Source of the DNA: an uncultured Spirochaetia bacterium
GTDB taxonomy: Bacteria; Oederibacteriota; PGYV01; CAYGHG01
NCBI GenBank assembly: GCA_964349515.1
Contig: CAYGHG010000003.1
Location: 1 to 55,556, forward strand
Length of the DNA stretch: 55,556 nucleotides
Direction of reading: 5' to 3'
The translations under genes were made by a program, and so were the position numbers. Shown here piece after piece: positions 155 to 55,556 of this stretch. A model generated the notes under the pieces. The model was not told where the DNA came from and made no database searches. It worked only from the letters and a program-made list of their open reading frames with translations. Numbering within the stretch: the stretch's first letter is position 1; the number at the start of each line of letters is the position of its first letter.

Positions 155-236
155 GCAACTTTTATTATTGCGGTTAAGAACTTTAAAACGGCTTACATCC
201 TATACTTTAAATTCATTGTTTTCAAGTACTTTTTAA

Positions 237-474
237 TGTCCTATATATTAATATTTTCCAAGCTTGCTGTCTATTCTCGATTTTCGATTCCCGACCTTTA
301 TAGCCTATGTCCTGATATTAATATCTTCCGAGCCTGCTGTCTATTCTCGATTTTCGATTCTCAGTCCTGCAGTCTTAAAGTCTTCACTACCGAAAATCGA
401 CCGTCGCCTCTCACCTTCACGCGTCTCGTTCTTTTCCTTCGTAGTATTTCTCGAATCTCGATTTTCGATTCTCT
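237..474. repeat. ~60-bp direct duplication (period 70) with TT(C/T)TCGA heptamer arrays in the Asp-Tyr tRNA spacer
   Basis: ATATTAATAT..AGC(T/C)TGCTGTCTATTCTCGATTTTCGATTC at ~245-290 and ~315-360; further heptamer run at 448-474; inverted copy CGAAAATCGA at 391-400. Confidence 0.85.
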
Positions 475-504
475 ACCATTTTTTCCTCCTCAAGGAGGAA
501 AAAA

Positions 505-1657: not shown

Positions 1658-3079
1658 TTATTTATCCGCCGTTACAGAGGTGCCGAGCGGCCTGAACTTG
1701 ACCGCATAGCCCGCCTCTGTCAGTTTTTTCTTCAGTTCATCAGACTCAGCGTATTTTTTTGCGTCCCGCAGGGTATCTATCTGCCTCACCATCTCTGCTA
1801 TGGCATCAGGCAGCTCTTTTACCGCCGGGTCAACCCCGAGCACGGCACACAGGGTATTTATCCATCCGTAGTACCCTTCAAAGAGTTTCCTGGATGCGCC
1901 ATTGATCGCGAGCTCCTTTGAAGAGAGCGCCTTTTTCACGTAAGAAACCGCGTCATATATGACCGCGACTGCCTTTGGAGTATTAAAATCGTCGTCAAGC
2001 GACTCATTGAACCTCGCAATACTCTTTGCCTTTTCTTCTTCAAAAGAAGAAAAAAGTCCCGTAAATGTTTCCTCTGACGCTTCTTTCGGGTTTGAAATGT
2101 ACTGTCTTAACTCAGAGAGCGTAAAACGTATTTCGTCATGCCCCTTTTTGACCGAATCAATGTTTTCATAGGAAAAATCCAGCGGCCCTCTGTAGTGTGC
2201 AGACAGGATGAACATCCTTATAACTTCAGCGGTGTAGTCGTTTAGAATATCGCGTATGAATATGAAGTTGCCCTTTGACTTGCTCATTTTTTCGCCTTTA
2301 ATATTCATGTAGCCTACGTGCATCCAGTAATTGGCAAAGACGCACCCGTTTGCAGCCTCTGACTGCGCTATTTCATTTTCGTGGTGGGGAAATATCAGGT
2401 CAGCTCCTCCGCCGTGTATGTCAAAGGTATTATCAAGATATTTAGAAGACATCGCCGAGCACTCAATGTGCCACCCCGGCCTGCCTGCGCCCCACGGCGA
2501 ATCCCAGAAAGGCTCGCCGGGTTTTGAAAACTTCCACAGCGCAAAATCCAGCGGGCTTTTTTTCTCTTCATCCACCTCAACGCGCGCGCCCTGCTGGAGC
2601 TCCTCTATATTTTTTTTCGAAAGTTTGCCGTACCCCTCAAAACTGCCCACGCTGAAATAAACACCGTGTTTGGAAACGTATGCATGGGTTTTTTCTATGA
2701 GCCCGGATATTATCTCCAGCATTTTGGGTATCTCTTCAGTAGCCCGGGGGCTGACGTCAGGCGGGGTGATTTTCAGCTTTTTAATATCCTCAAGATACGC
2801 GTCAGTATAGGTCTTTGCTATTACATCCCAGGAAGTCCCTTCTTCCGCGCCTTTTTTTATTATCTTGTCGTCTATGTCGGTTATGTTCTGCACAAAAGTA
2901 ACGTTTAGCCCGCGGTATTTCAGATAGCGCCTGAAGGCGTCAAATACAATAAATACGCGCGAGTTGCCGATATGAAAGTAATTGTAAACCGTGGGGCCGC
3001 AGGCATATATCCTGACCGAGCCTTCTGTTACAGGCTTAAACTCCTCCACCCTGGCGGTCATTGTATTGTATAGTTTCAT
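1658..3079 (-). CDS. cysS: Cysteine--tRNA ligase
   Basis: YACGPTVY, HIGN, GRPGWHIECSAM, HGGGADLIFPHHENE, KMSKS. Confidence 0.98.
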   Translation of the reverse strand: MKLYNTMTARVEEFKPVTEGSVRIYACGPTVYNYFHIGNSRVFIVFDAFRRYLKYRGLNVTFVQNITDIDDKIIKKGAEEGTSWDVIAKTYTDAYLEDIKKLKITPPDVSPRATEEIPKMLEIISGLIEKTHAYVSKHGVYFSVGSFEGYGKLSKKNIEELQQGARVEVDEEKKSPLDFALWKFSKPGEPFWDSPWGAGRPGWHIECSAMSSKYLDNTFDIHGGGADLIFPHHENEIAQSEAANGCVFANYWMHVGYMNIKGEKMSKSKGNFIFIRDILNDYTAEVIRMFILSAHYRGPLDFSYENIDSVKKGHDEIRFTLSELRQYISNPKEASEETFTGLFSSFEEEKAKSIARFNESLDDDFNTPKAVAVIYDAVSYVKKALSSKELAINGASRKLFEGYYGWINTLCAVLGVDPAVKELPDAIAEMVRQIDTLRDAKKYAESDELKKKLTEAGYAVKFRPLGTSVTADK

Positions 3080-3112
3080 GTACTTCCGGCTCCTTTAAAG
3101 TAGTTTGCTTTT

Positions 3113-3310
3113 TGACTCAATGGTCTCACGGTACTACCTGTCTCAACGGTCTCAGGGTACTGACTGACTCAATGGTCTCAGGTTACTGACTGACTCAATG
3201 GTCTCAGGTTACTGCCTGACTCAATGGTCTCAGGTTACTGACTGACTCAATGGTCTCAGGTTACTGCCTGACTCAATGGTCTCAGGTTACTGACTGACTC
3301 AATGGTCTCA
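3113..3310. repeat. 26-bp tandem repeat, ~7.6 copies (TGACTCAATGGTCTCAGGTTACTG[A/C]C)
   Basis: Units start at 3113, 3139, 3165, 3191, 3217, 3243, 3269 and 3295 (partial); no spacers; units 3-7 alternate GAC/GCC ends. Confidence 0.97.
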
Positions 3311-3325
3311 ATGGAAAAAAACTGC

Positions 3326-3388
3326 ACTGAGTCCGCTGAGTCCGTTGAGTCCGTTGAGTCCACTGAGTCCGTTGAGTCCATTGAGTCC
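3326..3388. repeat. 9-bp tandem repeat x7 (NNTGAGTCC), inverted relative to the 26-mer core
   Basis: TGAGTCC at 3328, 3337, 3346, 3355, 3364, 3373 and 3382; reverse complement of ATTGAGTC is GACTCAAT of the 26-mer. Confidence 0.95.
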
Positions 3389-3392
3389 AATT

Positions 3393-3869
3393 CTAGATTT
3401 CCACTAAAAGCACTACAGCATACGCCGCCATTCCTTCTTTTCTCCCCGTAAAACCCATGCCTTCCTCGGTGGTGGCTTTTACTCCCAGCTGTCCGGCGCT
3501 GACGCCGAGTATACCGGAAAGCGTCTCTTTAATCTTTTCTATGTGTGGCGATATTTTCGGCTCTTCAGCCACTATTATCATGTCAGCGTTTGAAATCGTG
3601 TATCCTTCCGCGCTTATGAGCTTTACGGTTTCTTTCAGTAGTTCCGTGCTTCTTATTCCTTTAAACTTCTCATCCTTGTCGGAAAAATAGTACCCGATAT
3701 CGCGAAGGCCGGCAGCTCCCAGCATGGCGTCCATCAAAGCATGTGTGAGCACATCAGCGTCAGAGTGTCCGAGCAGCCCTGTGCCGTTGTTTTCTATTTC
3801 CACCCCGCCGACATAGAGTTTCCTGCCCTTTGCAAATTTGTGGACGTCATACCCGTTTCCTATCCTCAC
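3393..3869 (-). CDS. ispF: 2-C-methyl-D-erythritol 2,4-cyclodiphosphate synthase
   Basis: RIGNGYDVH, GHSDADVLTHA, KATTEEGMGFTGRKEG. Confidence 0.98.
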   Translation of the reverse strand: MRIGNGYDVHKFAKGRKLYVGGVEIENNGTGLLGHSDADVLTHALMDAMLGAAGLRDIGYYFSDKDEKFKGIRSTELLKETVKLISAEGYTISNADMIIVAEEPKISPHIEKIKETLSGILGVSAGQLGVKATTEEGMGFTGRKEGMAAYAVVLLVEI

Positions 3870-4552
3870 GATTTACCTCCGCGCAGACCTTCGAGAGCTT
3901 TTAGGTCTTCCTTTGTCGTAACCTTGATGTTTAAAACATCGTCGTCTACTGCCGCCACCTTGTACCCCGCAGCCTCAAACATAAAAGCCTCGTCAGTGGG
4001 TTTTAACTTTTCTATTTTTTTCGAATCATACAGCCGGCAGAGCTCTGAGTACCGGAAACACTGCGGCGTGTGCGAAGTCCTCAGGTGTTCCCTGTCCAGG
4101 GTCTTCACGACAAGCCCGCCGTAGACGAGCTTTACCGTCGGGAAGACCCTGTTCACAGGTATCACCGCATGCTCTGTTTCAAGCATTTCTATCATTTTCT
4201 TGAGCAGGGGTCCGTTAAAAAAAGGCCTCGCTCCGTCATGTATTGAAACAGTTTCAGGCTTATGGTTTTTCAGAAAATCCAGGGCGTTTTTCACCGAATT
4301 AAACCGCTCCTGCCCGCCTTCTGTCACGGCAATGACTTTTTTCAGGCGGTATTTTTTTACAATACCTTTTACCTTATTAATGTATGGCTTTGCCGCGACA
4401 ATGACCAATGCTTCAATTTCTTTCGCCTTTTCAAATGCAAGAGCCGCATGGGCAAGTATTTCTTTGCCCCTGAACTTTGCATACTGTTTGGGAAGCGCGG
4501 ACTTAAACCTTTTTCCGCGCCCCGCGGCTACTATGACGGCTGCGTGCTTCAA
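3866..4552 (-). CDS. ispD: 2-C-methyl-D-erythritol 4-phosphate cytidylyltransferase
   Basis: VAAGRGKR..PKQY, GGQERFNSV, IHDGARPF, HTPQCF, KVTT. Confidence 0.96.
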   Translation of the reverse strand: MKHAAVIVAAGRGKRFKSALPKQYAKFRGKEILAHAALAFEKAKEIEALVIVAAKPYINKVKGIVKKYRLKKVIAVTEGGQERFNSVKNALDFLKNHKPETVSIHDGARPFFNGPLLKKMIEMLETEHAVIPVNRVFPTVKLVYGGLVVKTLDREHLRTSHTPQCFRYSELCRLYDSKKIEKLKPTDEAFMFEAAGYKVAAVDDDVLNIKVTTKEDLKALEGLRGGKS

Positions 4553-5446
4553 TTAATTGTTGTTCCCTTCGCTTTTATTACCGGATTCCTGCGGTGCAGG
4601 AGCCTGGGTGTTTTGTTCCTGTTTTACTTCAGGCTGATTGGGCCTGTTGTCAGGCCTGTTGTTTCTGCTTCCGCCGCGTTTCTTAAAGAACCTGAATTTG
4701 CCGCGCTTGTCGTTTGTTTTTCCCTGCGGCCTGCCCTGATTCTGCGCCTCGCCCTGCAGGTATTTCGCGAATATCATCCTGCCCGCGTCTGTCTGCAGCA
4801 CGTTGGTGACGGTGACATCTATCTGCCTGTTGAGCATTTTCTTGGCGTTATCAACTACAATCATGGTGCCGTCAGGCATGTAGGCAATGCCCTGCTCGCG
4901 CTCCCTGCCTTCTTTCATTATCTTGACGCTTATTTTCTCGCCCGGAAGAAAGCTCGGCTTGATGGAGTTTGACAGGTCGTTGATGTTTAAAACCCTGATG
5001 CCCTGTATTTCGGCGATTTTGTTCAGGTTGTAGTCGTTTGTGATGATGCTCGCATTCAGTTCACGCGCGAGCTCCACTAACTTTTCGTCTACTTTGTTGG
5101 TATGTTTATAATCGTTGTCAACAATCTCCACGGTTATGCCGGGTATTTTCCTGAAATCATTAAGAATGTCAAGCCCCCTGCGCCCCTTGTTGCGCTTCAT
5201 GTTGTCCTGCGAGTCTGCGATGAGCTGCAGTTCATGAAGCACGAATTTCGGCACTATCAGCGCGCCTTCCAGAAACCCCGTGCGCGCTATCTCATTTAAC
5301 CTGCCGTCAATTATGACGCTTGTATCAACCAGCTTTTTGGAAAGATTCGCCCTCGCGAACTTTATCCTGTAAATGACTGCCTGTATTACAATAATGAGCA
5401 GAAACAATGACGCGGCGCCTGCCGCGATGTAAAATTCCGTAGTCAT
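4553..5446 (-). CDS. PIN/TRAM domain membrane protein (YacL-like)
   Basis: N-terminal TM helix, VDTSVIIDGR, RGRRGLDIL, TNDYNL, GIAYMPDGTMIVV; conserved radA-yacL-ispD context; low-complexity tail. Confidence 0.92.
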   Translation of the reverse strand: MTTEFYIAAGAASLFLLIIVIQAVIYRIKFARANLSKKLVDTSVIIDGRLNEIARTGFLEGALIVPKFVLHELQLIADSQDNMKRNKGRRGLDILNDFRKIPGITVEIVDNDYKHTNKVDEKLVELARELNASIITNDYNLNKIAEIQGIRVLNINDLSNSIKPSFLPGEKISVKIMKEGREREQGIAYMPDGTMIVVDNAKKMLNRQIDVTVTNVLQTDAGRMIFAKYLQGEAQNQGRPQGKTNDKRGKFRFFKKRGGSRNNRPDNRPNQPEVKQEQNTQAPAPQESGNKSEGNNN

Positions 5447-5495
5447 ATTCGTGTACCTCCTTTCTTTAAAATTTTACTCCTGTTTTTGTTCCTAA

Positions 5496-5529
5496 CCCCC
5501 TTTGCCCGGAAAGGGGGGCAGGGGGGATT
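5496..5529 (+). repeat. REP-like GC hairpin element CCCCCTTT..AAAGGGGGG-CAGGGGGGATT
   Basis: Intergenic hairpin CCCCCTTT gcccgg AAAGGGGG followed by the G-rich tail GGGGGGATT. Confidence 0.6.
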
Positions 5530-5543
5530 GCTTTTAGTCTTTG

Positions 5544-5633
5544 TTTCAAGTTTCAAGTTTCAAGTTTCAAGTCTAAACCTTTACACCTTCACACTTTACA
5601 CCTTTACACTTTAATCTTTACACCTTTACACTC
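5544..5633. repeat. Two abutting short-unit arrays: (TTTCAAG)x4 and CTTTACA(C) 7/8-mers
   Basis: tttcaag at 5544, 5551, 5558 and 5565; ctttacac/ctttaca units from 5579 to 5633. Confidence 0.9.
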
Positions 5634-5637
5634 GTTG

Positions 5638-6990
5638 TTAAAAATCCATTATCTTTCTCAGCTCTTCCACGCTTCCTATCTCAGTTACTTCCATTCCTTT
5701 GGTTTTTACACCGCTTCTTTTGGGGATTATGCATTTTGCAAAACCCATTCTCGTGGCCTCTGCCACGCGTTCTTCCATCATGTGCACAGGCCTTACCTCA
5801 CCGTCTAATCCCAGCTCTCCTATGAATGCCCATTTGGTAGGCAGAGGCACCGACCGGAAGCTTGAATACACGGCAGCGGCTATGCCTAAATCGGCCGCTG
5901 TCTCAAATACTTTTATTCCGCCTGCGACGTTCATGAAGACGTCCTGATTCTCCATGCTCAAATCCATCATTTTTTCAAGTATCGCAATTATCAAAAGTAC
6001 CCTATTGTAGTCTATTCCCGTAACAGTCCTCTGCGGCATGCCGAAATTACGCCTTGCCGTCAGGGCCTGTATTTCAAGAAGCATGGGCCTCGTTCCTTCC
6101 AGTACTGTCACTATGGCGCTGCCTGTTTTCTGCTCTTTAATATTTTCAAGAAGCATCTTCGAAGGGCTCATTACCTCTGTAATGCCCGCAGACCCCATCT
6201 CAAACACACCTATTTCATTTGTCGAGCCAAAGCGGTTTTTGACAGCCCTCAGTATCTTAAACCTGTAGTAGTTCTCGGATTCAAAATACATTACCGCGTC
6301 CACCATGTGCTCGAGCGTCTTAGGCCCGGCTATTGAGCCGTCTTTTGTCACGTGCCCGACTATCAAAACCGGTATGCCGCTTTTTTTTGCCGCATACATC
6401 AGGTGCGCGCAGCTCTCACGGACCTGGTTAACCCCGCCTGCCGCTGAGTCTATGTCTTCCTTATATACAGTCTGTATCGAATCTATTATTACAAGCCCCG
6501 GTTTTTCTGATTCCATCAGGGCTGCGATTTTTTCCACGCCTGTTTCTGTCACAACGTACAGTTTTTCAGAATCCGCGCCTATCCTGTCTGCCCTCATTTT
6601 TATCTGCTCAAGCGATTCCTCGCCCGACACATACAGCCCCTTTATGCCCGCTTTGGCGGCTCTGTCTGCGATGGTCAGCGCGAGAGTTGACTTGCCCGCG
6701 CCGGGCTCGCCGCCCAACAGCACAAGCGAGCCTTTTACAATCCCGCCGCCAAAGACGCGGTCTACCTCTCCGATGCCTGTCTTTATCCTGTCGCGCTCTA
6801 TGCTTCCCACGTCCTTTAGCGCGCTTACCGCTCCCGCGTCAAAGCGCCTGTGAGAGCGCTCTTTTAGGGGCTCTTTTTCCTCTGTTTCCTCGCTGAAAGA
6901 GTTAAACTCCCCGCATGACGGGCATTTGCCGAGCCACTTTGCGGAGTTATAGCCGCATGAAGCGCAGGCAAAAAATGTTTTCTTTTTCAA
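5638..6990 (-). CDS. radA: DNA repair protein RadA/Sms
   Basis: CxxC-GKCPSC zinc finger, GGEPGAGKST Walker A, KNRFG motif, C-terminal Lon-like domain. Confidence 0.98.
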   Translation of the reverse strand: MKKKTFFACASCGYNSAKWLGKCPSCGEFNSFSEETEEKEPLKERSHRRFDAGAVSALKDVGSIERDRIKTGIGEVDRVFGGGIVKGSLVLLGGEPGAGKSTLALTIADRAAKAGIKGLYVSGEESLEQIKMRADRIGADSEKLYVVTETGVEKIAALMESEKPGLVIIDSIQTVYKEDIDSAAGGVNQVRESCAHLMYAAKKSGIPVLIVGHVTKDGSIAGPKTLEHMVDAVMYFESENYYRFKILRAVKNRFGSTNEIGVFEMGSAGITEVMSPSKMLLENIKEQKTGSAIVTVLEGTRPMLLEIQALTARRNFGMPQRTVTGIDYNRVLLIIAILEKMMDLSMENQDVFMNVAGGIKVFETAADLGIAAAVYSSFRSVPLPTKWAFIGELGLDGEVRPVHMMEERVAEATRMGFAKCIIPKRSGVKTKGMEVTEIGSVEELRKIMDF

Positions 6991-7003: not shown

Positions 7004-8920
7004 TTATATCCCTATTGCCCTGGTTTTTATTTTATCAAGCACGCCGTTCATGAACCCGTCAAAATCCACTCCCTTTGTCTCTTCTCCGGTACGCAGGCGC
7101 ACAGACACAGTCCTGTCCTGCACTTCCTTGTCTCCGATTATCAGCATGTAGGGGGTTTTATTCATTGCCGCTTTTCTTATTTTGGCCCCTATCTTTTCAT
7201 TTTCGTCATCAAGCGAAACCCTGATGCCTGCTGATTTCAGTTTCAAAACCAGCTCGCGTGCGAACTCATCGCTTCTTTGCGTAATGGTCAGCACGCTTAC
7301 CTGCTCGGGCGAGAGCCATACCGGAAAAGCGCCCTTGTAGTGTTCTATCAGCACGCCGAAGAAACGCTCAAGCGACCCCATCAGCGCGCGGTGTATCATT
7401 ATGGCGCGGTGGTCGGCACCGTCTTTTCCCGTATAGTCAATACTGAATCTCTCGGGCAGGGCAAAATCCACCTGTATTGTGGAGCACTGCCACGTCCTGT
7501 TTAAGGCGTCCTTTATCTTTATGTCAATCTTGGGCCCGTAAAACGCGCCTCCGCCCTCATCAACCTGATATTTTAACTCAGCTTTAGCGAGCGCGGCTTT
7601 AAGTGCTGCCTGCGCTTTATCCCATATTTCATCTGAGCCAATGTGTTCATCAGGCTTGGTGCTTAAATAAACCTCGAACTCGCTGAAACCAAAGGTCTTT
7701 AAAATAAACATCACGAAATTAAGGGCGCTGATTATCTCCTCTTCCACCTGGTCCTCGCGGCAGAAAATATGAGCGTCATCCTGTGTAAATCCGCGCACGC
7801 GCAGCAGGCCGTGCAGGACGCCGGATTTTTCATATCTGTAAACCGTGCCGAGCTCTGCCCAGCGCAGCGGCAGGTCGCGGTAGCTCTTTGGCGTGTTTTT
7901 GTACATTAATATGTGAAAGGGGCAGTTCATGGGTTTGAGCTGGTACTGCATCTCGTCAATATCCATAGTGTCAAACATGTTTGCCCTGTAAAAGCCGGTG
8001 TGGCCCGAGGTGTTCCACAGGTCAATTTTAGCAATGTGAGGGGAGAATACTATGTCGTAACCGTTTTTAATGTGTTCGTTCCGCCAGAAATCCTCCATCT
8101 CTTTTCTGACCATGCCGCCCTTGGGGTGCCAGTAAATCAAGCCCGCGCCAAACTCGTCGTGCGTGGAAAACAAATCAAGCTCGCGTCCGATTTTTCTATG
8201 GTCGCGCTGTTTTGCCTCTTCCATCCTTTTTAAATATTCATCCAGCTGCTCCTGAGACGGAAAAGTAATCCCGTATATTCTCTGCAGCATCTTGTTCTTT
8301 TCGTCACCGCGCCAGTATGCGCCGGCGAGTTTCATCAGCTTTACCGCTTTTATCTTTTTTGAATATGTGACATGGGGCCCGCGGCACAGGTCAACGAAGT
8401 TTTCTGTTTTATAAATCGATACGGACGGGTCTTTTATGGCTTCAAGTATCTCAAGTTTGTAGTTTTCTCCCATGTCCGCGAACATTTTTTTGGCATCCGC
8501 AACAGACATTTCCTCCCTTTTAAAAGGGTGGTTTTCCTTTGACACCTTTTTCATCTCTTCTTCTATCTTTACCAGATCATCTTCCGTAAACGGCTTGTCC
8601 CTGTCAAAATCATAATAAAACCCCTCATCTATTGCGGGGCCTATGGTCACCTCTACCTCGGGAAAAAGCCTCTTTACCGCAACAGCCATAACGTGCGAGC
8701 TCGAATGCCAGTATATTTCGCGGCCCTCAGGATCGTCAAATGTCAGGGCTTTAAGCTCGCCCGCTTCGTTTAAAGGCGCGCCCATGTCGAGATGCCTTCC
8801 GTTCAATGAAACTGCAAGAACGCCCTCTTTCTCTATTCCTGTATTTTTCAGGAAATCAGAGGCGCGTACGCCCGTTTCAGTTTCAAATTCCCGTCCTTCA
8901 TATTGTATCTTAATCGCCAT
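7004..8920 (-). CDS. thrS: Threonine--tRNA ligase
   Basis: TGS domain, HSSSHVMA, DLCRGPH, RDHRKIG, KPMNCP, RVRGFTQDDAH, AFYGPKID. Confidence 0.99.
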   Translation of the reverse strand: MAIKIQYEGREFETETGVRASDFLKNTGIEKEGVLAVSLNGRHLDMGAPLNEAGELKALTFDDPEGREIYWHSSSHVMAVAVKRLFPEVEVTIGPAIDEGFYYDFDRDKPFTEDDLVKIEEEMKKVSKENHPFKREEMSVADAKKMFADMGENYKLEILEAIKDPSVSIYKTENFVDLCRGPHVTYSKKIKAVKLMKLAGAYWRGDEKNKMLQRIYGITFPSQEQLDEYLKRMEEAKQRDHRKIGRELDLFSTHDEFGAGLIYWHPKGGMVRKEMEDFWRNEHIKNGYDIVFSPHIAKIDLWNTSGHTGFYRANMFDTMDIDEMQYQLKPMNCPFHILMYKNTPKSYRDLPLRWAELGTVYRYEKSGVLHGLLRVRGFTQDDAHIFCREDQVEEEIISALNFVMFILKTFGFSEFEVYLSTKPDEHIGSDEIWDKAQAALKAALAKAELKYQVDEGGGAFYGPKIDIKIKDALNRTWQCSTIQVDFALPERFSIDYTGKDGADHRAIMIHRALMGSLERFFGVLIEHYKGAFPVWLSPEQVSVLTITQRSDEFARELVLKLKSAGIRVSLDDENEKIGAKIRKAAMNKTPYMLIIGDKEVQDRTVSVRLRTGEETKGVDFDGFMNGVLDKIKTRAIGI

Positions 8921-9573: not shown

Positions 9574-11204
9574 CAGTTACCGCCTTCCTTCCCGCCATTG
9601 GCAGGTTTTCCAAAATCGGCTATATCATCGAGCTTAAACCCGTGCTCGTGCGATTTTATGTAGTCGTCTATCTGTTTTTTTTCTTCGGTCATTTCAATAT
9701 CTTTCGCTGCAAGAATGACTTTCTTTGCATCCTTGTCAATTTTTACTATTCTGGCCTTTATGACATCCCCTTTTTTGCAGGAAAGTTTGTGCTTATTCCT
9801 TATAGGTATCCTGCCGATTATTCCATCTACAATACAGCAGACCACCGCCGAATCTTCAATATCTATAACCTTTGTGTCAACTGCCGTGCCCTCTTTGAAT
9901 TTGGCCGCAAATGTAACCCAGGGCGAGGCGTGCATCTGCTTCAAGCCGAGAAGAATACGGTACTTGCTTTTATCAATTTCCAATATCCTGAACTCGCGCC
10001 TGTCGCCGGTCTTAATCGTGTCGGCAATCGGCGCGGATTCATTCCACGAAACGTTTGAAACGCGCACAAACGCGTCAAAATTCTCCTCAAGCTCAACTTC
10101 CGCACCCTCGCCTTCCGCCACCGAAGAGACCGTGCCGATTACTCTCGCGCCAACCGGATAGCGTTCCTCGATTGAATGCCACGGGTTCTTATCAAGCCTT
10201 TTTATGCTGAAATATACCCTGCCCTTTGCTTCGTCGATTTTTACAACAACAGCTTCTATCTCATCCCCTTCTTTATACGCCTCCCTTATGTCTTTTACAC
10301 GCCTGTAATATGATATCTCGCTTTTGTGAATAAACCCGTCCATCTGCGGGTTAATCTCAACCACCATGCCTTCGTCAAGTATTCCGCAGACCTTTAATTT
10401 CATTCTGTCGCCCTGCTTTGAGGTTTTTGCAAAACCTCCGAACGGATTCTCAAAAAGTTTTTTTACGCTTAAAACAGGCCTGCCGCCGTCAATTCCCAAG
10501 ACAAGAGCCTCTATGTCCTGCCCCTCGCTGAAAAGCGTTTTTAAATCCCCCAGCCTTTTCCACGCAAGCTCGGATGACGCTATAAAAGCCCTTACCCCCT
10601 CTTTTTCAACTTCAACGCCCGCATCCTGCACTGACACGACTTTTAACGCCGTTTTTTCATTTACCGTAAATACTCTTTTCACCTTTTCTTCTTCGTCTTT
10701 TGCCTTTTGGTTTATAAGTTCCCTGTAGGACACCACAACATTTCTTTTTACTTCGTCAAGCTGTATAACTTTCAGGTCAAGCTCCTGCCCGGTTATGTCC
10801 TCACCGTAAGAACGCGAGTGGGACATAGGCAGAAACGCCGTAACGTTTGCGCCAAAATCAATGATAAACCCCCCCTTTACAGCCTTTACCACCCTGCCCT
10901 TAAGCGCTTCTCCGTCCTTAAATGCTTTTTTAACCCTTGAAAATATGACTTTTTTATCCGCCACTATCTTTGAAAGCAGCACCATCCCGTCCGGCCCCTC
11001 TGTCTTTTTTACAAAAAGATCTATTTCCCCGCCCTCTTCAAGCGAGTCATAATAGGTGTACTTGGCCGTTTCTTCCGCCGGTATTATCCCCTCTGACTTG
11101 TAGCCTATGTCAATGAAAACATCCCCGCCGGATTTTCTGACAATTTTACCTTTTATTACCGCGCCTTCTCTTATATCCCTGATTGAGTATTCGCTGTTTT
11201 CCAT
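9573..11204 (-). CDS. rpsA: 30S ribosomal protein S1
   Basis: Tandem S1 domains (DIGYKSEG, VKGGFIID, GFIHKSEISY, YPVGARVIGTV, LGLKQ). Confidence 0.92.
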   Translation of the reverse strand: MENSEYSIRDIREGAVIKGKIVRKSGGDVFIDIGYKSEGIIPAEETAKYTYYDSLEEGGEIDLFVKKTEGPDGMVLLSKIVADKKVIFSRVKKAFKDGEALKGRVVKAVKGGFIIDFGANVTAFLPMSHSRSYGEDITGQELDLKVIQLDEVKRNVVVSYRELINQKAKDEEEKVKRVFTVNEKTALKVVSVQDAGVEVEKEGVRAFIASSELAWKRLGDLKTLFSEGQDIEALVLGIDGGRPVLSVKKLFENPFGGFAKTSKQGDRMKLKVCGILDEGMVVEINPQMDGFIHKSEISYYRRVKDIREAYKEGDEIEAVVVKIDEAKGRVYFSIKRLDKNPWHSIEERYPVGARVIGTVSSVAEGEGAEVELEENFDAFVRVSNVSWNESAPIADTIKTGDRREFRILEIDKSKYRILLGLKQMHASPWVTFAAKFKEGTAVDTKVIDIEDSAVVCCIVDGIIGRIPIRNKHKLSCKKGDVIKARIVKIDKDAKKVILAAKDIEMTEEKKQIDDYIKSHEHGFKLDDIADFGKPANGGKEGGN

Positions 11205-14906: not shown

Positions 14907-14941
14907 TTTTTCACTTTCAGTTTTCAGTTTTAAACTTTCAG
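14865..14941. repeat. Heptamer arrays at the aroF-tyrA junction
   Basis: attctgt x2-gctttgc-gttcttt (14865-14892) and ctttcag-ttttcag-ttttaaa-ctttcag (14914-14941). Confidence 0.7.
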
Positions 14942-14942
14942 T

Positions 14943-25899: not shown

Positions 25900-25912
25900 A
25901 GTCAGTTAACTC

Positions 25913-25999
25913 CTATTAGTTTACAGTTTACAGTTTACAGTCTACAGTTGCACTTCAAGAACAGGCCTTTTTTCAACTGTAAACTTTAGACTATAGACT
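25913..25999. repeat. Inverted pair of T(T/C)TACAG heptamer arrays
   Basis: tttacag x3-tctacag-tt (25920-25949), 25-nt spacer, then aactgtaaac-tttagac-tatagac-t (25975-25999). Confidence 0.88.
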
Positions 26000-26010
26000 C
26001 TTTGCTGTTT

Positions 26011-31458: not shown

Positions 31459-31656
31459 TTACCTCTCATAAAATCTTGTTTTTTTACCGCTTTTCATAAA
31501 CAAAAACAGTTTCATTTCAAGTCTCTCATCGTCCAACCGTCTTTCCTCAGACAGCATCTCAGTCACTGACCTGCTGCTTTTTAAAGAACCCCGAAGCCTG
31601 TCTATGGCTTCGTGTGCCTCTTTAATGCTTTTCTGTTCCTCTTCTCTCTTCTCTCT
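31459..31656 (-). pseudogene. Possible antitoxin C-terminal remnant, in frame after the BrnA-like stop
   Basis: 65 sense codons (..AIDRLRGSLKSSRSVTEMLSEERRLDDER..) with no start codon of their own at the 5' end. Confidence 0.4.
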
Positions 31657-31965
31657 TCATCTCTTTTCCCTTTTCTTAGCAACAGACCTGCCATAGGGGG
31701 CTTCTGTCTCTTTGAGCATATTATCCGCGTATTTATGCAGAACGCTGGAAATCAGGGTCTGGTATGGCATGCCTTCTCGCACTGCTTTTTCCTTGATTTT
31801 ATTCAGGTCGTTCTCGTTTACCCTCATAGTAATGATTTTTCTTTTTCTCATAGAAGCCAAATCCCGCTCTATCTGTTTTCTTTTAGCGCCTGTAACAGGC
31901 GCAAATTCGTGTAAATGATCCTGTATCCACTGTTCTTCCTTATCAAGCTTGTATTTTAGCTTCAT
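31657..31965 (-). CDS. BrnA/CopG-like (RHH) antitoxin
   Basis: ITMRVNENDLNKIKEKAVREGMPYQTLISSVLHKY; overlaps the upstream toxin stop. Confidence 0.85.
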   Translation of the reverse strand: MKLKYKLDKEEQWIQDHLHEFAPVTGAKRKQIERDLASMRKRKIITMRVNENDLNKIKEKAVREGMPYQTLISSVLHKYADNMLKETEAPYGRSVAKKREKR

Positions 31966-33960: not shown

Positions 33961-34028
33961 GAGACAGCAATTCCTTACTTCTGTCTCCTTACTTCTGTCT
34001 CCTTACTTTTGTCTCCTGTCTTCTGTCT
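33961..34028. repeat. 14-bp (7+7) tandem repeat x3 plus heptamers at the hisH-hisA junction
   Basis: CCTTACTT(C/T)TGTCT at 33973, 33987 and 34001; cctgtct-tctgtct; inverted GAGACAG at 33961. Confidence 0.9.
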
Positions 34029-34665: not shown

Positions 34666-35258
34666 AGCTTTCCTTTTGTGCTCATCACCGAACTGCCCGT
34701 TATTTCAACAGCCTGTTTGAGTGCTATTGCAAAACCCTTGAAAATCGACTCTATGATATGGTGCGTGTTTTTACCCTTTAATTTGTCTATGTGCAGTGTC
34801 ACGGCAGCGCCGCGCACGAATCCGTTGAAAAACTCTTCTACCAGTTCCGTGTCAAAAGTCCCTATTTTAGCGCACGGCAGTTTTACCTTGTAATCAATGA
34901 ACGCGCGGCCCGAGAGGTCGATCACTACCCTTACCAGCGCTTCGTCAAGCACGCCGGCAGAACCGAAACGCCGCACGCCTTTTTTGTCGCCGAGGGCTTC
35001 TTTTAGCGCGGTTCCTATCGATATGCCCAGATCCTCAGCCAGATGGTGGGAATCTATTTCAACATCACCCTTTGCTTCAATTTCAATGCTTATGCCGCTG
35101 TGTTTTGAGAGCTGCTCCAGCATGTGGGTAAGAAAGGGCTCATTAGTCTTTATTTTATATTTACCCCTGCCGTCTACGCTTAAACGCAGAATTATCTCTG
35201 TTTCCTTTGTTTTCCTCTTAACCGAGGCTTTTCTGTTCTTTCTGCCTGAAGCCATCAC
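34662..35258 (-). CDS. hisB: Imidazoleglycerol-phosphate dehydratase (monofunctional)
   Basis: RKTKET, FLTHML, DSHHLAED, LDEAL..DLSGR, NTHHIIES.FK. Confidence 0.97.
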   Translation of the reverse strand: MMASGRKNRKASVKRKTKETEIILRLSVDGRGKYKIKTNEPFLTHMLEQLSKHSGISIEIEAKGDVEIDSHHLAEDLGISIGTALKEALGDKKGVRRFGSAGVLDEALVRVVIDLSGRAFIDYKVKLPCAKIGTFDTELVEEFFNGFVRGAAVTLHIDKLKGKNTHHIIESIFKGFAIALKQAVEITGSSVMSTKGKL

Positions 35259-45355: not shown

Positions 45356-45774
45356 TGCTTTTTTCCTCCGGAGTTCCTGTTCAGATAGTCCCGCAATATC
45401 AGCGAAGCGGCAATTTTGTCGTTTAAAAGTTTTCTTTTTTTCCTTGATACACCGGCGCTTATCAGCAGTTCTTCGGACTCCGCCGTGGTCATCCTCTCGT
45501 CCCACAGTATTGTTTCAGGCGCGCCAGCAACTGACTCCACAAGCGCCTTTAGCTCCTCCGCCAGAGTGTTGCCTGCGTTTTTTGTGCCGTCCATATTTAT
45601 CGGGTTTCCCACCAGCACAAGGGAGGGCTCATAGTCCCGAAACAGCTTTTCCAGTTCCTTTGGCAGCCTCTCGTTGTTATTAACAAAAGAAAGCGGGGAG
45701 GCAATAGTTCCCGAGGGATCGCTGATTGCTATTCCTATCCTCACCCTGCCCGGGTCAAGCGCCATTATCCTCAT
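45352..45774 (-). CDS. ruvX: YqgF/RuvX-family nuclease (pre-16S rRNA processing)
   Basis: ALDPG..RIGIAISD, VGNP..MDG, DERMTT, DKIAA; alaS-ruvX-mltG synteny. Confidence 0.96.
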   Translation of the reverse strand: MRIMALDPGRVRIGIAISDPSGTIASPLSFVNNNERLPKELEKLFRDYEPSLVLVGNPINMDGTKNAGNTLAEELKALVESVAGAPETILWDERMTTAESEELLISAGVSRKKRKLLNDKIAASLILRDYLNRNSGGKKQ

Positions 45775-53412: not shown

Positions 53413-55556
53413 CTACCTTATTATGGTGAATTTAACCGTAATTATTTTCTGCAGGCCGGTGTCCGTTCTGGCCCTGATTACGGCTATGTATAGGCCCGAA
53501 GAGACGCTCTCAACACCGGTCAGCAGGTTCCACCTGAGTTCGTGAGGCGACGGGCCGCTGTTATCGAGGTCAACTATCAGTTCTCCCGCGAGGTTGTATA
53601 TTCTCGCGTTCACTTTGGTGCCTGCCATAGCGTCAAACGTTATCAGCAACCTGTCAGTATTCTCTATTTTAAGCGGATTCGGTATAACCTTTACGTTATT
53701 TATGACTTCATACCCGTTATGCAGCACTGTAATATTCGCGGTAGCCACAGTCTCATACCCGTTAACATCCACATTGACTATCTGTATGTAGTATACTCCG
53801 TTATCCACTATCAGGCCGTTATTGTTGGTTCCGTTCCATTCAAGCGTAATGTCTGAATAATGTATTGTAAGCTTATTCATACCCGCCTCGTCAGGATAGA
53901 ACGCGGCCGGAGGCGCAGGGTCAAGCGTCAGAGTCTTTGAACCCTTTATAACCGGCGAAGTAACAGGTATTATCTTGACCAGCTCCCCGGCGGTATTGTA
54001 TATTCTGGCCTCTGTTTTTACATTGTTAGTAAGCACAGTCACGCTGTCCACAGATATATGCTCGTAACCGTAGTCGTCTTTTACAACGACTTTTATGTAA
54101 TACACGCCGTTGCCGACGCTTGCGCCCTGGTCGTTTTTGCCGTTCCATTTATATATGTACCCGCCGACATCAATTACCACTTCGCTCCCGTCGTCAGGGC
54201 TGAATGTGCTTCCGCTCGTGATGGTGAAGTTATCAACCATCTCATAAGCCCCCGATGAACTTATGTGTTTCACAACCTCGCCGGCCTCATTGTAAACATA
54301 TATGTCAAGAATATAAACAGGCGTCGGCGACACGGTAGGAGTCTGCGTGGCAGTCGGAGATACCGTGTACGTGGATGTCTGAGTCATAGTCTCCGTAGCG
54401 GTAAGCGTAGCCGTAGGAGTCCCGGTCAGCGTTATAGTAGGCGTAGCCGTAAGCGTCGAAGTAGGCGTAGCCGTAGAAGTCGGCGAATGAACCGGCGTAT
54501 TTGTAGAAGTGCTAGTAGGCGTAGCCGTCCGGGTTATGGAAGGCGTTATAGTTACCGTAATCGTTCCTGTAATAGTCGGCGTCACTGTCTGAGTGACAGT
54601 CTGTGATACCGTCGGCGTTGACGTCTGTGAAACCGTTTCGGTAATAGTAGGCGTTACCGTCACTGTCACAGTGTCCGTTTCGGTAACCGTAGGTGTTACA
54701 GTTTCAGTCACAGTAGGCGTGACAGTCTCCGAAACAGTAGGAGTCACCGTCTCAGTTATTGTCGGCGTTACGGTCTCCGTTATAGTCGGCGTGACTGTTT
54801 CCGTCACTGTAGGCGTTATGGTCTCCGTCACTGTAGGCGTTGCAGTTTCAGTAACAGTATCTGTAGGCGTTACGGTGTCTGTAATTGTCGGTGTTACAGT
54901 CTCTGTAATCGTAGGCGTCACAGTCTCAGTGATTGTCGGTGTCGCAGTTTCGGTAATCGTAGGCGTTGTCGTCTCTGTAATCGTAGGCGTTACTGTCTCT
55001 GTCATTGTAGGAGTTACTGTCTCTGTTATCGTAGCAGTGACAGTCTCGGTTATGGTCGGAGTTACGGTTTCTGTTATTGTCGGCGTTATAGTTTCTGTAA
55101 TCGTCGGGGTAACGGTCTCTGTTATTGTAGGCGTTACTGTTTCTGTAACAGTAGGTGTCGAAGTTTCAGTAATTGTAGGTGTTACGGTATCAGTAATTGT
55201 AGGTGTTACGGTTTCTGTAATAGTCGGTGTCACCGTCTCTGTTATAGTCGGTGTCACGGTCTCAGTAATAGTCGGCGTTGCCGTTTCAGTAATTGTAGGC
55301 GTAACTGTCTCGGTTATTGTCGGTGTCACAGTCTCCGTAATCGTAGGTGTCACGGTTTCGGTTATTGTCGGTGTTGCTGTCTCTGTAACAGTGTCAGTAG
55401 GTGTAATTGTCTCAGTTATAGTCGGTGTCACAGTCTCCGTTATCGTCGGCGTTACCGTCTCAGTTATTGTCGGTGTTACCGTTTCTGTAATTGTCGGTGT
55501 TACTGTTTCCGTGATGGTTGGAGTAACCGTCTCAGTAATCGTCGGCGTTACTGTCT
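53413..55556 (-). CDS. Large exported protein, 5'-truncated: Thr/Pro repeat stalk (TPTITETV)n and three FlgD/T9SS-CTD-like Ig domains
   Basis: Frame is open to the window end; C-terminal repeats of IYN.AGE.V..W.G..G.Y; terminal PNP..IYN..SGLY..KF.II domain. Confidence 0.9.
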   Translation of the reverse strand, partial: TVTPTITETVTPTITETVTPTITETVTPTITETVTPTITETVTPTITETITPTDTVTETATPTITETVTPTITETVTPTITETVTPTITETATPTITETVTPTITETVTPTITETVTPTITDTVTPTITETSTPTVTETVTPTITETVTPTITETITPTITETVTPTITETVTATITETVTPTMTETVTPTITETTTPTITETATPTITETVTPTITETVTPTITDTVTPTDTVTETATPTVTETITPTVTETVTPTITETVTPTITETVTPTVSETVTPTVTETVTPTVTETDTVTVTVTPTITETVSQTSTPTVSQTVTQTVTPTITGTITVTITPSITRTATPTSTSTNTPVHSPTSTATPTSTLTATPTITLTGTPTATLTATETMTQTSTYTVSPTATQTPTVSPTPVYILDIYVYNEAGEVVKHISSSGAYEMVDNFTITSGSTFSPDDGSEVVIDVGGYIYKWNGKNDQGASVGNGVYYIKVVVKDDYGYEHISVDSVTVLTNNVKTEARIYNTAGELVKIIPVTSPVIKGSKTLTLDPAPPAAFYPDEAGMNKLTIHYSDITLEWNGTNNNGLIVDNGVYYIQIVNVDVNGYETVATANITVLHNGYEVINNVKVIPNPLKIENTDRLLITFDAMAGTKVNARIYNLAGELIVDLDNSGPSPHELRWNLLTGVESVSSGLYIAVIRARTDTGLQKIITVKFTIIR
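54580..55556 (-). repeat. 24-bp coding tandem repeat (TPTITETV), roughly 40 units visible
   Basis: 8-aa periodicity with highly variable third codon positions. Confidence 0.93.

Follow-up and report, generated by a model that had tools for sequence, protein, structure and literature searches.

Facing tandem arrays between ispF and cysS of an uncultured bacterium: a probable expanded member of a lineage's repeat-armed intergenic hairpins

The 55,556-nt stretch analyzed here (the window; contig CAYGHG010000003.1 of assembly GCA_964349515.1, from an uncultured Spirochaetia bacterium) carries, within the 313-nt spacer between ispF and cysS (3080-3392), two tandem arrays of complementary units that face each other, a 26-mer array of 7.6 copies and a 9-mer array of about seven. 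There is high confidence that they constitute a lineage-typical, slippage-derived inverted repeat pair. On balance, the element is best explained as a species-specific and greatly expanded member of the repeat-armed intergenic hairpins of this lineage, a slippage-expanded intercistronic stem-loop that would be transcribed with its operon. A selected function of the RNA is considered rather unlikely.

Comparison of the units indicates that one arm is the 9-mer array with its 27-nt super-unit and that the other is an inverted, decayed 26-nt copy of it; the perfect alternation of two unit variants shows that this second arm was amplified later, in 52-nt steps of two units. Replication slippage or unequal recombination may account for the expansion, and the inverted arm may have been created by a fold-back or template-switch duplication. 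In the transcript, the arms are predicted to form a long imperfect stem that is closed by the constant outer repeats and holds the variable units in its interior. One outcome would be an insertion that is folded out of the way and is nearly neutral. The other would be a determinant of mRNA processing or stability, either a target of a double-strand-specific RNase or a barrier to 3' exonucleases, which would uncouple the expression of ispDF from that of cysS and the adjoining methylase gene. In the models, the element neither terminates transcription nor occludes the ribosome-binding site.

Architecture of the facing arrays

Tandem Repeats Finder called the 26-mer array (3113-3310) with a period of 26, 7.6 copies, 93% matches and a score of 333, and the 9-mer array (3328-3388) with a period of 9, 6.8 copies and a score of 94; the latter was also called with a period of 27 (2.3 copies, 94% matches). 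These calls agree with an earlier note made from the letters alone, which had described a 26-mer repeated 7.6 times facing about seven copies of a 9-mer. On the mRNA, the ispF stop codon is followed in order by 5 nt, (GGACUCAAY)x7, GUGCAGUUUUUUUCC, (AUUGAGUCAGKCAGUAACCUGAGACC)n, 17 nt, the Shine-Dalgarno sequence AAAGGAG, 10 nt and the cysS AUG. The 9-mer array, whose first base thus lies 5 nt past the ispF stop codon, has an identical sequence in four assemblies.

The unit layout bears out further details of that note. The alternation of GAC and GCC with its 52-nt period is seen in the five units at 3165-3294, and divergence is greatest in the two units nearest cysS (at 3113 and 3139). The reported A7 run (3315-3321) is indeed present in the spacer that separates the arrays, but this spacer is 17 nt long (3311-3327) rather than 15 nt, with the partial unit ending at 3310. 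Among the 9+9+8 sub-units proposed for the 26-mer, resemblance to the complement of the 9-mer is clear in two (7/9 and 6/9) and weak in the third.

Compared with shuffled windows, the 26-mer was matched six times in the real sequence and in none of the shuffles, and the 16-nt double 9-mer was matched 14 times against 0.18 expected. Thirty-three inverted-repeat pairs link the two arrays, the best of them being 93% complementary over 15 nt. When the 27-nt super-unit is reverse-complemented, the 26-mer aligns with it at 19/27 identity and one gap, and 1/300 shuffles score as high, in line with the earlier observation that the 9-mer array carries the reverse complement of the 26-mer core. Being composed of head-to-tail units within 5-11 nt and longer than expected by chance, the 9-mer array is a short-unit tandem array, while the 26-mer arm exceeds the unit range of such arrays and is better described as a minisatellite derived from the 3 x 9 super-unit.

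GGTCTC is present in 8/8 26-mer units, and the array region contains 14 GANTC sites (7 GACTC and 7 GAGTC) in 280 bp, both as counted before; outside the array, 141 GANTC sites occur in the remaining 55 kb, with an observed/expected ratio of about 0.7. No second copy of the 26-mer or the 9-mer was found in the 55.5-kb window outside 3113-3388, which answers for the window the question of whether the 26-mer occurs elsewhere in the genome. Within it, both units are confined to this one locus, whereas the heptamers TTGAAAC, GTAAACT and CGAGAAT do recur.

Predicted folding and operon context

The sense RNA of 3070-3400 has a predicted folding energy of -107.6 kcal/mol (z = -4.55 against shuffles). 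In the predicted structures of three alleles (that of the window and two shorter ones described below), the first four 9-mers (3351-3387) constantly pair with the two diverged 26-mer units (3114-3149), closing the structure at 3114-3387 through helical runs of 10, 4, 3, 3, 2 and 8 bp. The last 9-mers are predicted to pair with the loop-proximal units, and the variable units to fold locally in the interior; in the ensemble, the 9-mer array is about 80% paired with the downstream array. The cysS Shine-Dalgarno sequence has an unpaired probability of 0.94 and is free in all three alleles, on which grounds occlusion of the ribosome-binding site by alternative registers was rejected. Across the base of the predicted helix, about 22 nt would separate the ispF stop codon from the cysS ribosome-binding site, a distance comparable with the spacers of 11-16 nt in some relatives.

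The gene order thrS, radA, PIN, ispD, ispF, cysS, SpoU-type methylase and tRNA cluster is kept in all relatives fetched, and in the window the gene for the SpoU/TrmH-type rRNA methylase begins 1 nt after cysS. The 11-16 nt spacers of some relatives are too short for a promoter, so that in this lineage ispF and cysS most probably share a transcript. Since no promoter or terminator is detectable here and such short spacers occur in relatives, the whole 313-nt spacer is presumably transcribed within the operon mRNA.

Copy number in other assemblies

Three other assemblies of the same species encode an identical IspF, and two of them also encode an identical CysS. Shorter alleles were found in two MEGAHIT contigs, with 3.6 26-mer units in a spacer of 209 nt (L001) and 4.6 units in a spacer of 235 nt (L002). 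Both share the flanks, the 9-mer array and the two diverged units with the window allele, and the variable interior units number one or two in these short-read alleles versus five in the window. A third contig (L004, from Logan) breaks off within the array. With the same units and flanks present in three further assemblies, the array is not an artefact of one assembly, a concern that the earlier note had raised. Copy number is either polymorphic or collapsed by short-read assemblers; the 7.6-copy allele is probably real, because its perfect 52-nt-period stretch of about 153 nt is just resolvable at k=141, and the short alleles may be collapsed. In practice, the locus is liable to be misassembled from short reads and could serve as a marker for strain typing.

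Relatives and inferred age

In the scan of genome contigs, the best match and sole relative from the lineage was a 'candidate division FCPU426' metagenome-assembled genome with 62% CysS identity, and in the scan of metagenome contigs none of the matches listed was closer than 53%. A protein search combined with contig look-ups yielded relatives at 88%, 73%, 64% and about 60%, and relatives found at the protein level (54-61% identity) carry the label Candidatus Goldbacteria or Goldiibacteriota, the source bacterium being Goldbacteria/FCPU426-like. The relative at 88% CysS identity (L165) has an ispF-cysS spacer of 75 nt without an array. The corresponding spacers measure 70 nt in L169 (73%), 16 nt in L166 (64%), 131 nt in L005 (62%), and 11, 105 and 49 nt in L170, L171 and L172, respectively.

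Because neither the 9-mer nor the 26-mer is contained in the ispF-cysS spacer of any relative fetched, the element is considered young and species-specific, having arisen after the split from the 88% relative. The spacer of that relative holds only two copies of GTTTCAA and a single AGTCAGACATTAAC, which matches the 26-mer core at 12/14 positions (23/1000 shuffles reach this score, P ~0.02). Given this marginal match, it is possible that AGTCAGACATTAAC represents a single-copy precursor of the array, which would then have originated in the ancestral spacer. The same relative is also devoid of arrays at the radA-PIN and methylase-tRNA junctions, the window species being the array-richer of the two.

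Repeat arrays and repeat-armed hairpins of the lineage

The window has 17 non-redundant arrays, ten of which fall within the approximately 7% of its sequence that is intergenic (binomial P ~3e-8). Relative to control loci (159 loci from other phyla, 1.1 Mb or 1,116 kb), arrays are more frequent here, with 0.31 per kb in the window versus 0.129 per kb in controls (2.4-fold rarer). Periods of 7 or 14 characterize about 9/17 window arrays versus 8/144 control arrays and reach a density of approximately 0.16 per kb versus 0.007 per kb (~20-fold). Five intergenic arrays start no more than about 10 nt past the upstream stop codon at co-directional junctions. Junction arrays that likewise begin at most about 10 nt from the upstream stop are located at 5447-5637, 14907-14942, 25900-26010 and 31628-31676; the ACTGAAA-type array at 14907-14942 fills the whole 36-nt spacer, in which no Shine-Dalgarno sequence is recognizable before the next start codon.

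Inverted pairs of such arrays form hairpins whose arms are tandem heptamers, as at 25900-26010 of the window. In L005, the ispF-cysS junction itself carries a heptamer-armed hairpin of -59.9 kcal/mol followed by a U-run, and further ones are present at ispD-ispF and radA-PIN; L171 has them at rex-thrS, radA-PIN and ispF-cysS, and L169 at ispF-cysS. By strict ungapped criteria, period-7 repeat-armed hairpins number three in 142 kb of the lineage and none in the 1,116 kb of controls (Fisher P = 0.0014). The heptamer sequence is locus-specific, and its variants are mirrored in the opposite arm, for example TGGAGAC with GTCTCCA in L005. Among the loci examined, no non-coding member of this repeat-armed class is larger than the ispF-cysS element. 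The latter is also the top-scoring non-coding array in the window and, with heptamer-built hairpins at the same and neighboring junctions of relatives, it fits the earlier suggestion that it is the largest example of a junction-array family.

In L171, the same hairpin AGATTTCAGATATAAAG...TATATCTGAAAT occurs at two junctions, 7671-7760 (radA-PIN) and 9896-9975 (ispF-cysS), and therefore constitutes a small dispersed REP-like element in that genome.

A further repeat of the lineage is a module of three CGAGAAT heptamers (with A/G variants) directly followed by TGATCAGCAAGCTTGGA...TTAATTATA, which is conserved in tRNA-cluster spacers and also precedes two protein genes. It is found in four genomes that share only about 60% CysS identity and in 0/159 control loci. 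Because the heptamers sit just upstream of a promoter-like pair, TTGATC...(17)...TAATTA, their position suggests an upstream promoter element or an activator site.

Searches for known classes

The locus was considered as a member of several established classes, each of which was rejected. The direct repeats are strictly contiguous at 26 and 9 nt spacing and have no unique spacers, so that an array of clustered regularly interspaced short palindromic repeats (CRISPR) is excluded, as the earlier note had also concluded. A T-box, riboswitch, leader or any other Rfam family is likewise excluded, as no covariance model matches at the locus: at the gathering threshold, Rfam detects only three tRNAs in the window, and at E<=10 the region 3000-3480 gives chance matches only (19 bits versus a gathering score of 55). 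An intrinsic terminator was dismissed because the scan finds none in the spacer, the U7 run lies in the loop and is preceded by no hairpin in the nascent RNA, and there is no U-run past the array; within 2900-3600, the only terminator-like site lies inside the ispF coding sequence (3415-3428).

A mobile or viral origin was rejected on the basis of the IMG/VR database, in which the 24-nt core has no match and the 16-nt double 9-mer has 12 matches, about the number expected by chance, of which only one (L175) is an inverted array of three units. This unrelated viral contig with 69% G+C (IMGVR_UViG_3300045933_000156, 2457-2719) has a 91-nt inverted repeat with 82% complementarity and 81 nt between its arms; the 9-mer ACGGACTCA occurs three times per arm, and further small hairpins flank it. 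Beyond this contig and the ispF-cysS locus, no facing array of the unit was found, and the match is probably a coincidence. In the literature, no paper on such repeats in FCPU426 or Goldbacteria was found.

Coordinates and neighboring features

The flanking genes, the parts of the element and the other arrays are listed in Table 1, in which ORF denotes an open reading frame.

Table 1. Coordinates of genes, array components and related repeats (window positions unless a relative is named)
Feature	Position	Strand	Description
cysS	1658-3079	minus	cysteine--tRNA ligase; Pfam PF01406; gene 3' of array
cysS Shine-Dalgarno AAAGGAG	3090-3096	minus	17 nt downstream of array, 10 nt before AUG
Two diverged 26-mer units adjoining cysS	3113-3164	minus	3' arm of predicted closing helix; identical in all alleles
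Five near-identical 26-mer units	3165-3294	minus	...GAC/...GCC alternation = 52-nt period; copy-number-variable interior
Partial 16-nt 26-mer unit	3295-3310	minus	adjoins spacer; pairs with last 9-mer in predicted 9-bp helix, 3296-3304 with 3325-3333
Inter-array spacer	3311-3327	minus	17 nt; A7 run (U7 in mRNA) at 3315-3321; predicted apical loop region
9-mer array	3328-3388	minus	mRNA GGACUCA(A/G)(U/C) x7; 27-nt super-period of AA-AA-AG types; 5' arm of predicted hairpin
ispF stop codon TAG	3395-3393	minus
ispF	3393-3869	minus	2-C-methyl-D-erythritol 2,4-cyclodiphosphate synthase; ORF; Pfam PF02542 YgbB on identical product
ispD	3866-4552	minus	ORF and Pfam
PIN-domain gene	4553-5446	minus	ORF and Pfam
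radA	5638-6990	minus	ORF and Pfam
GAGAATC-type arrays	155-504		sense orientation given
ACTGTAA arrays	618-649, 25918-25949		sense orientation given
CTTGAAA arrays	815-844, 5543-5572		sense orientation given
GTGTAAAG array	5577-5631		sense orientation given
ACTGAAA array	14907-14942		sense orientation given
AGAGAGA-type array	31628-31676		sense orientation given
14-mer array	33972-34028		sense orientation given
CGAGAAT module sites, window	155-504 (arrays 273-294, 343-363, 447-467)	minus (sense)
CGAGAAT module sites, relatives	L005 7918-7938; L166 8384, 9246, 9385; L171 12258, 12931

Several other stretches of the window were recorded in passing. Positions 1-77, 3' of tRNA-Asp, differ at few positions from 12466-12545 of L170 although CysS is only 60% identical between the two; the stretch comprises a terminator-like hairpin GGAAAGCCCTTCTTCT...AGAAGGGCTTTTTC plus AAATTCAAGGGTTTTCTCGTTCGCTGTGC, and the similarity could be due to conservation of a non-coding element, to transfer of the segment or to chimeric binning. 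A tandem array of 24/48-nt units (54689-55556, and 54394-54714; about 36 copies, 72% matches) runs off the contig end and lies partly inside a large minus-strand ORF (53413-55431); it is probably part of a repeat-protein gene and the reason why the contig ends there. Finally, 34894-35254 and 45506-45773 are intergenic under a 70-aa ORF filter and contain no arrays, yet they have a coding-like composition and may be short or disrupted genes.

Alternative explanations

A number of observations weigh against the preferred explanation of an expanded, operon-transcribed hairpin. The antisense strand folds more stably than the sense strand (-116.9 kcal/mol, z = -5.4), and there is therefore no G-U asymmetry that would favor RNA over DNA; of 12 hairpins compared, nine are slightly more stable as the sense strand, with the ispF-cysS locus showing the opposite, so that comparing strands by folding energy is uninformative as to RNA or DNA. 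With an ensemble frequency of 0.0002, the minimum free energy structure represents one among a great many registers, as the earlier note had anticipated in pointing to many alternative hairpins. The shorter alleles come from short-read assemblies at k=141 and may be collapsed. No sigma-70-like promoter was detected in 2900-3600 with a sigma-70 consensus that may not be that of the host phylum, and co-transcription as well as any effect at the RNA level are inferred. No homologous array was found in any relative, and the fact that the 88% relative lacks the array altogether fits an element without function equally well. The proposal of a copy-number-variable structural RNA in the earlier note is consequently borne out in part: the differing unit counts (7.6, 4.6 and 3.6) and the z-score of the sense fold speak for it, and the better antisense fold and the possible collapse of the short alleles against it.

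It is possible, if somewhat unlikely, that the array is a neutral by-product of mutation, in which an unusually high rate of slippage or template switching in this species generated a minisatellite that is tolerated in a non-essential spacer and is functionless as RNA or DNA. This overlaps with the nearly neutral branch of the preferred explanation. It is consistent with the missing array in the 88% relative, where the radA-PIN and methylase-tRNA arrays are missing too, with spacer lengths from 11 to 313 nt across the lineage, with a unit number that varies between assemblies, with units unique to the locus within 55 kb and with folding that shows no strand asymmetry. However, the complementarity of the arms and the closing helix are kept in all alleles, and the start of window arrays within about 10 nt of an upstream stop together with the recurrence of mirrored-heptamer hairpins in relatives suggests constraint or a directed process. 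A role at the DNA level is distinctly improbable; here, GANTC or TGA(C/G)TCA-like cores would form an iteron- or operator-like array that recruits a protein or methyltransferase and affects operon transcription or local chromosome structure. The density of GANTC sites in the array region relative to the remaining 55 kb would fit, as would the viral inverted repeat of L175, and the conserved CGAGAAT triplets beside the promoter-like TTGATC...TAATTA indicate that some arrays of the lineage probably do act on DNA. Yet the GANTC excess follows automatically from repeating a unit with one site, no relative conserves the 9-mer or the 26-mer, and neither occurs at a second place in the window. Moreover, the periods (9 and 26 bp) do not fit the helical repeat of DNA, no candidate emerged for a binding protein or a methyltransferase, and the viral match is compatible with chance (~7e-5 per 9-mer array), the other 11 viral matches being unrelated.

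Transcription attenuation is very unlikely as an explanation. An attenuator or terminator would separate ispDF from cysS, which would then be expressed from read-through or from its own promoter, and both the hairpin followed by CUUUUGUUUUC at the equivalent position of L005 and the capacity of long hairpins to pause RNA polymerase are in keeping with this. The position of U7 between the arms, the lack of a U-run past the array and the empty terminator scan argue against it, as do the canonical terminators of this genome, which look different in that they lie past tRNAs and their short stems have A and U runs on either side. Nor is a promoter for the essential cysS detectable past the array. 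It is extremely improbable that the 9-mer array encodes (Asp-Ser-X)7, as a small gene or a read-through extension of IspF. Its 9-nt period is a multiple of three, and a gene caller annotated a 44-aa ORF in L001, but this ORF would begin at a TTG 2 nt past the ispF stop without a Shine-Dalgarno sequence, its C-terminus falls in the non-triplet 26-mer array, and no relative, not even the 88% one, has it. With no stop codon in its unit, the 9-mer array is simply open in all three frames.

A more far-reaching proposal, regarded as doubtful, is that repeat-armed hairpins constitute a functional system of this phylum, serving within operons as slippage-adjustable, heritable rheostats of neighbor-gene expression, of which the ispF-cysS element would be an extreme setting. 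The closing helix would survive lengthening and shortening, a lineage-specific double-strand RNase or a repeat-binding protein could be the reader, and the conserved CGAGAAT x3 arrays would form a separate class of promoter-upstream elements. A functional element would illustrate how a hypervariable insertion of 270 nt is tolerated or exploited by an essential operon through hairpin folding. It would also add an uncultured candidate phylum to Xanthomonas, cyanobacteria and Beggiatoaceae as bearers of the poorly understood intergenic heptamer and inverted repeats, and the alleles would provide a natural series in which the effect of such arrays could be tested. A neutral element would simply mark an unusually slippage-prone genome.

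Comparison with known systems

REP/BIME elements of enterobacteria and BOX elements of Streptococcus pneumoniae can be regarded as functional analogues, being intergenic, transcribed within operons and able to form stable stem-loops. REP hairpins shield upstream mRNA from 3' exonucleases, and BOX elements contain a variable number of internal boxB modules between conserved ends, an arrangement resembled by the variable interior units of the ispF-cysS element between its constant closing arms. Both are dispersed families with tens to hundreds of conserved copies, and REPs are mobilized by RAYT transposases; the ispF-cysS element, by contrast, has no second copy in 55 kb, and its arms are tandem repeats rather than unique palindromes. 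Bacterial variable-number tandem repeat (VNTR) or minisatellite loci, which are used in multiple-locus VNTR analysis (MLVA typing), are intergenic tandem arrays of 9-60 nt units with strain-variable copy number. The ispF-cysS arrays are likewise intergenic and differ in copy number between assemblies. VNTR loci are typically single direct arrays, unlike the facing inverted array with register-matched 27-nt and 26-nt super-units described here.

In cyanobacteria, heptamer-dominated long simple-sequence repeats and short tandemly repeated repetitive (STRR) heptamers are over-represented in intergenic DNA (Mrazek et al. 2007, as cited in PMC4679880), and marine Beggiatoaceae contain intergenic TAACTGA repeats (MacGregor 2015, PMC4679880). 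Slippage has been proposed as the origin of these arrays, and their function is largely unclear, with hints of transcriptional or translational effects (PMC4679880; bioRxiv 10.1101/2022.06.06.494920); in Nostoc, heptamer-type repeats have been reported to affect expression (Pradhan et al. 2022, bioRxiv 10.1101/2022.06.06.494920). The lineage-specific excess of intergenic heptamer arrays, represented in the window by TTGAAAC, GTAAACT and CGAGAAT, is a shared trait. The TAACTGA arrays, however, are direct repeats, with one indirect only, and lie immediately upstream of start codons (PMC4679880), whereas the ispF-cysS element is an inverted pair with longer units that reaches from the upstream stop to 17 nt before the Shine-Dalgarno sequence.

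The closest described phenomenon is the convergent intergenic pairs of the heptamer GGGAATC in Xanthomonas campestris and X. axonopodis, with 70-75 pairs per genome (Rehm et al. 2015, PMC4692102). These pairs are mostly located between co-directional genes at an average of 28 nt from the upstream open reading frame, much nearer than to the downstream one, vary widely in length and are not conserved between related species (PMC4692102). In the same manner, the ispF-cysS arrays consist of complementary units on opposite strands that are close together and could form a stem-loop, begin 5 nt past the stop of the upstream gene and are missing in the 88% relative. They differ in having units of 9 and 26 nt instead of 7 nt and very unequal arms (63 versus 198 nt), in not being G-rich, so that no G-quadruplex is possible, in occupying one locus within 55 kb as opposed to a motif dispersed about 180 times, and in belonging to a different, uncultured phylum. 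The register-matched 27/26 super-units are a further difference.

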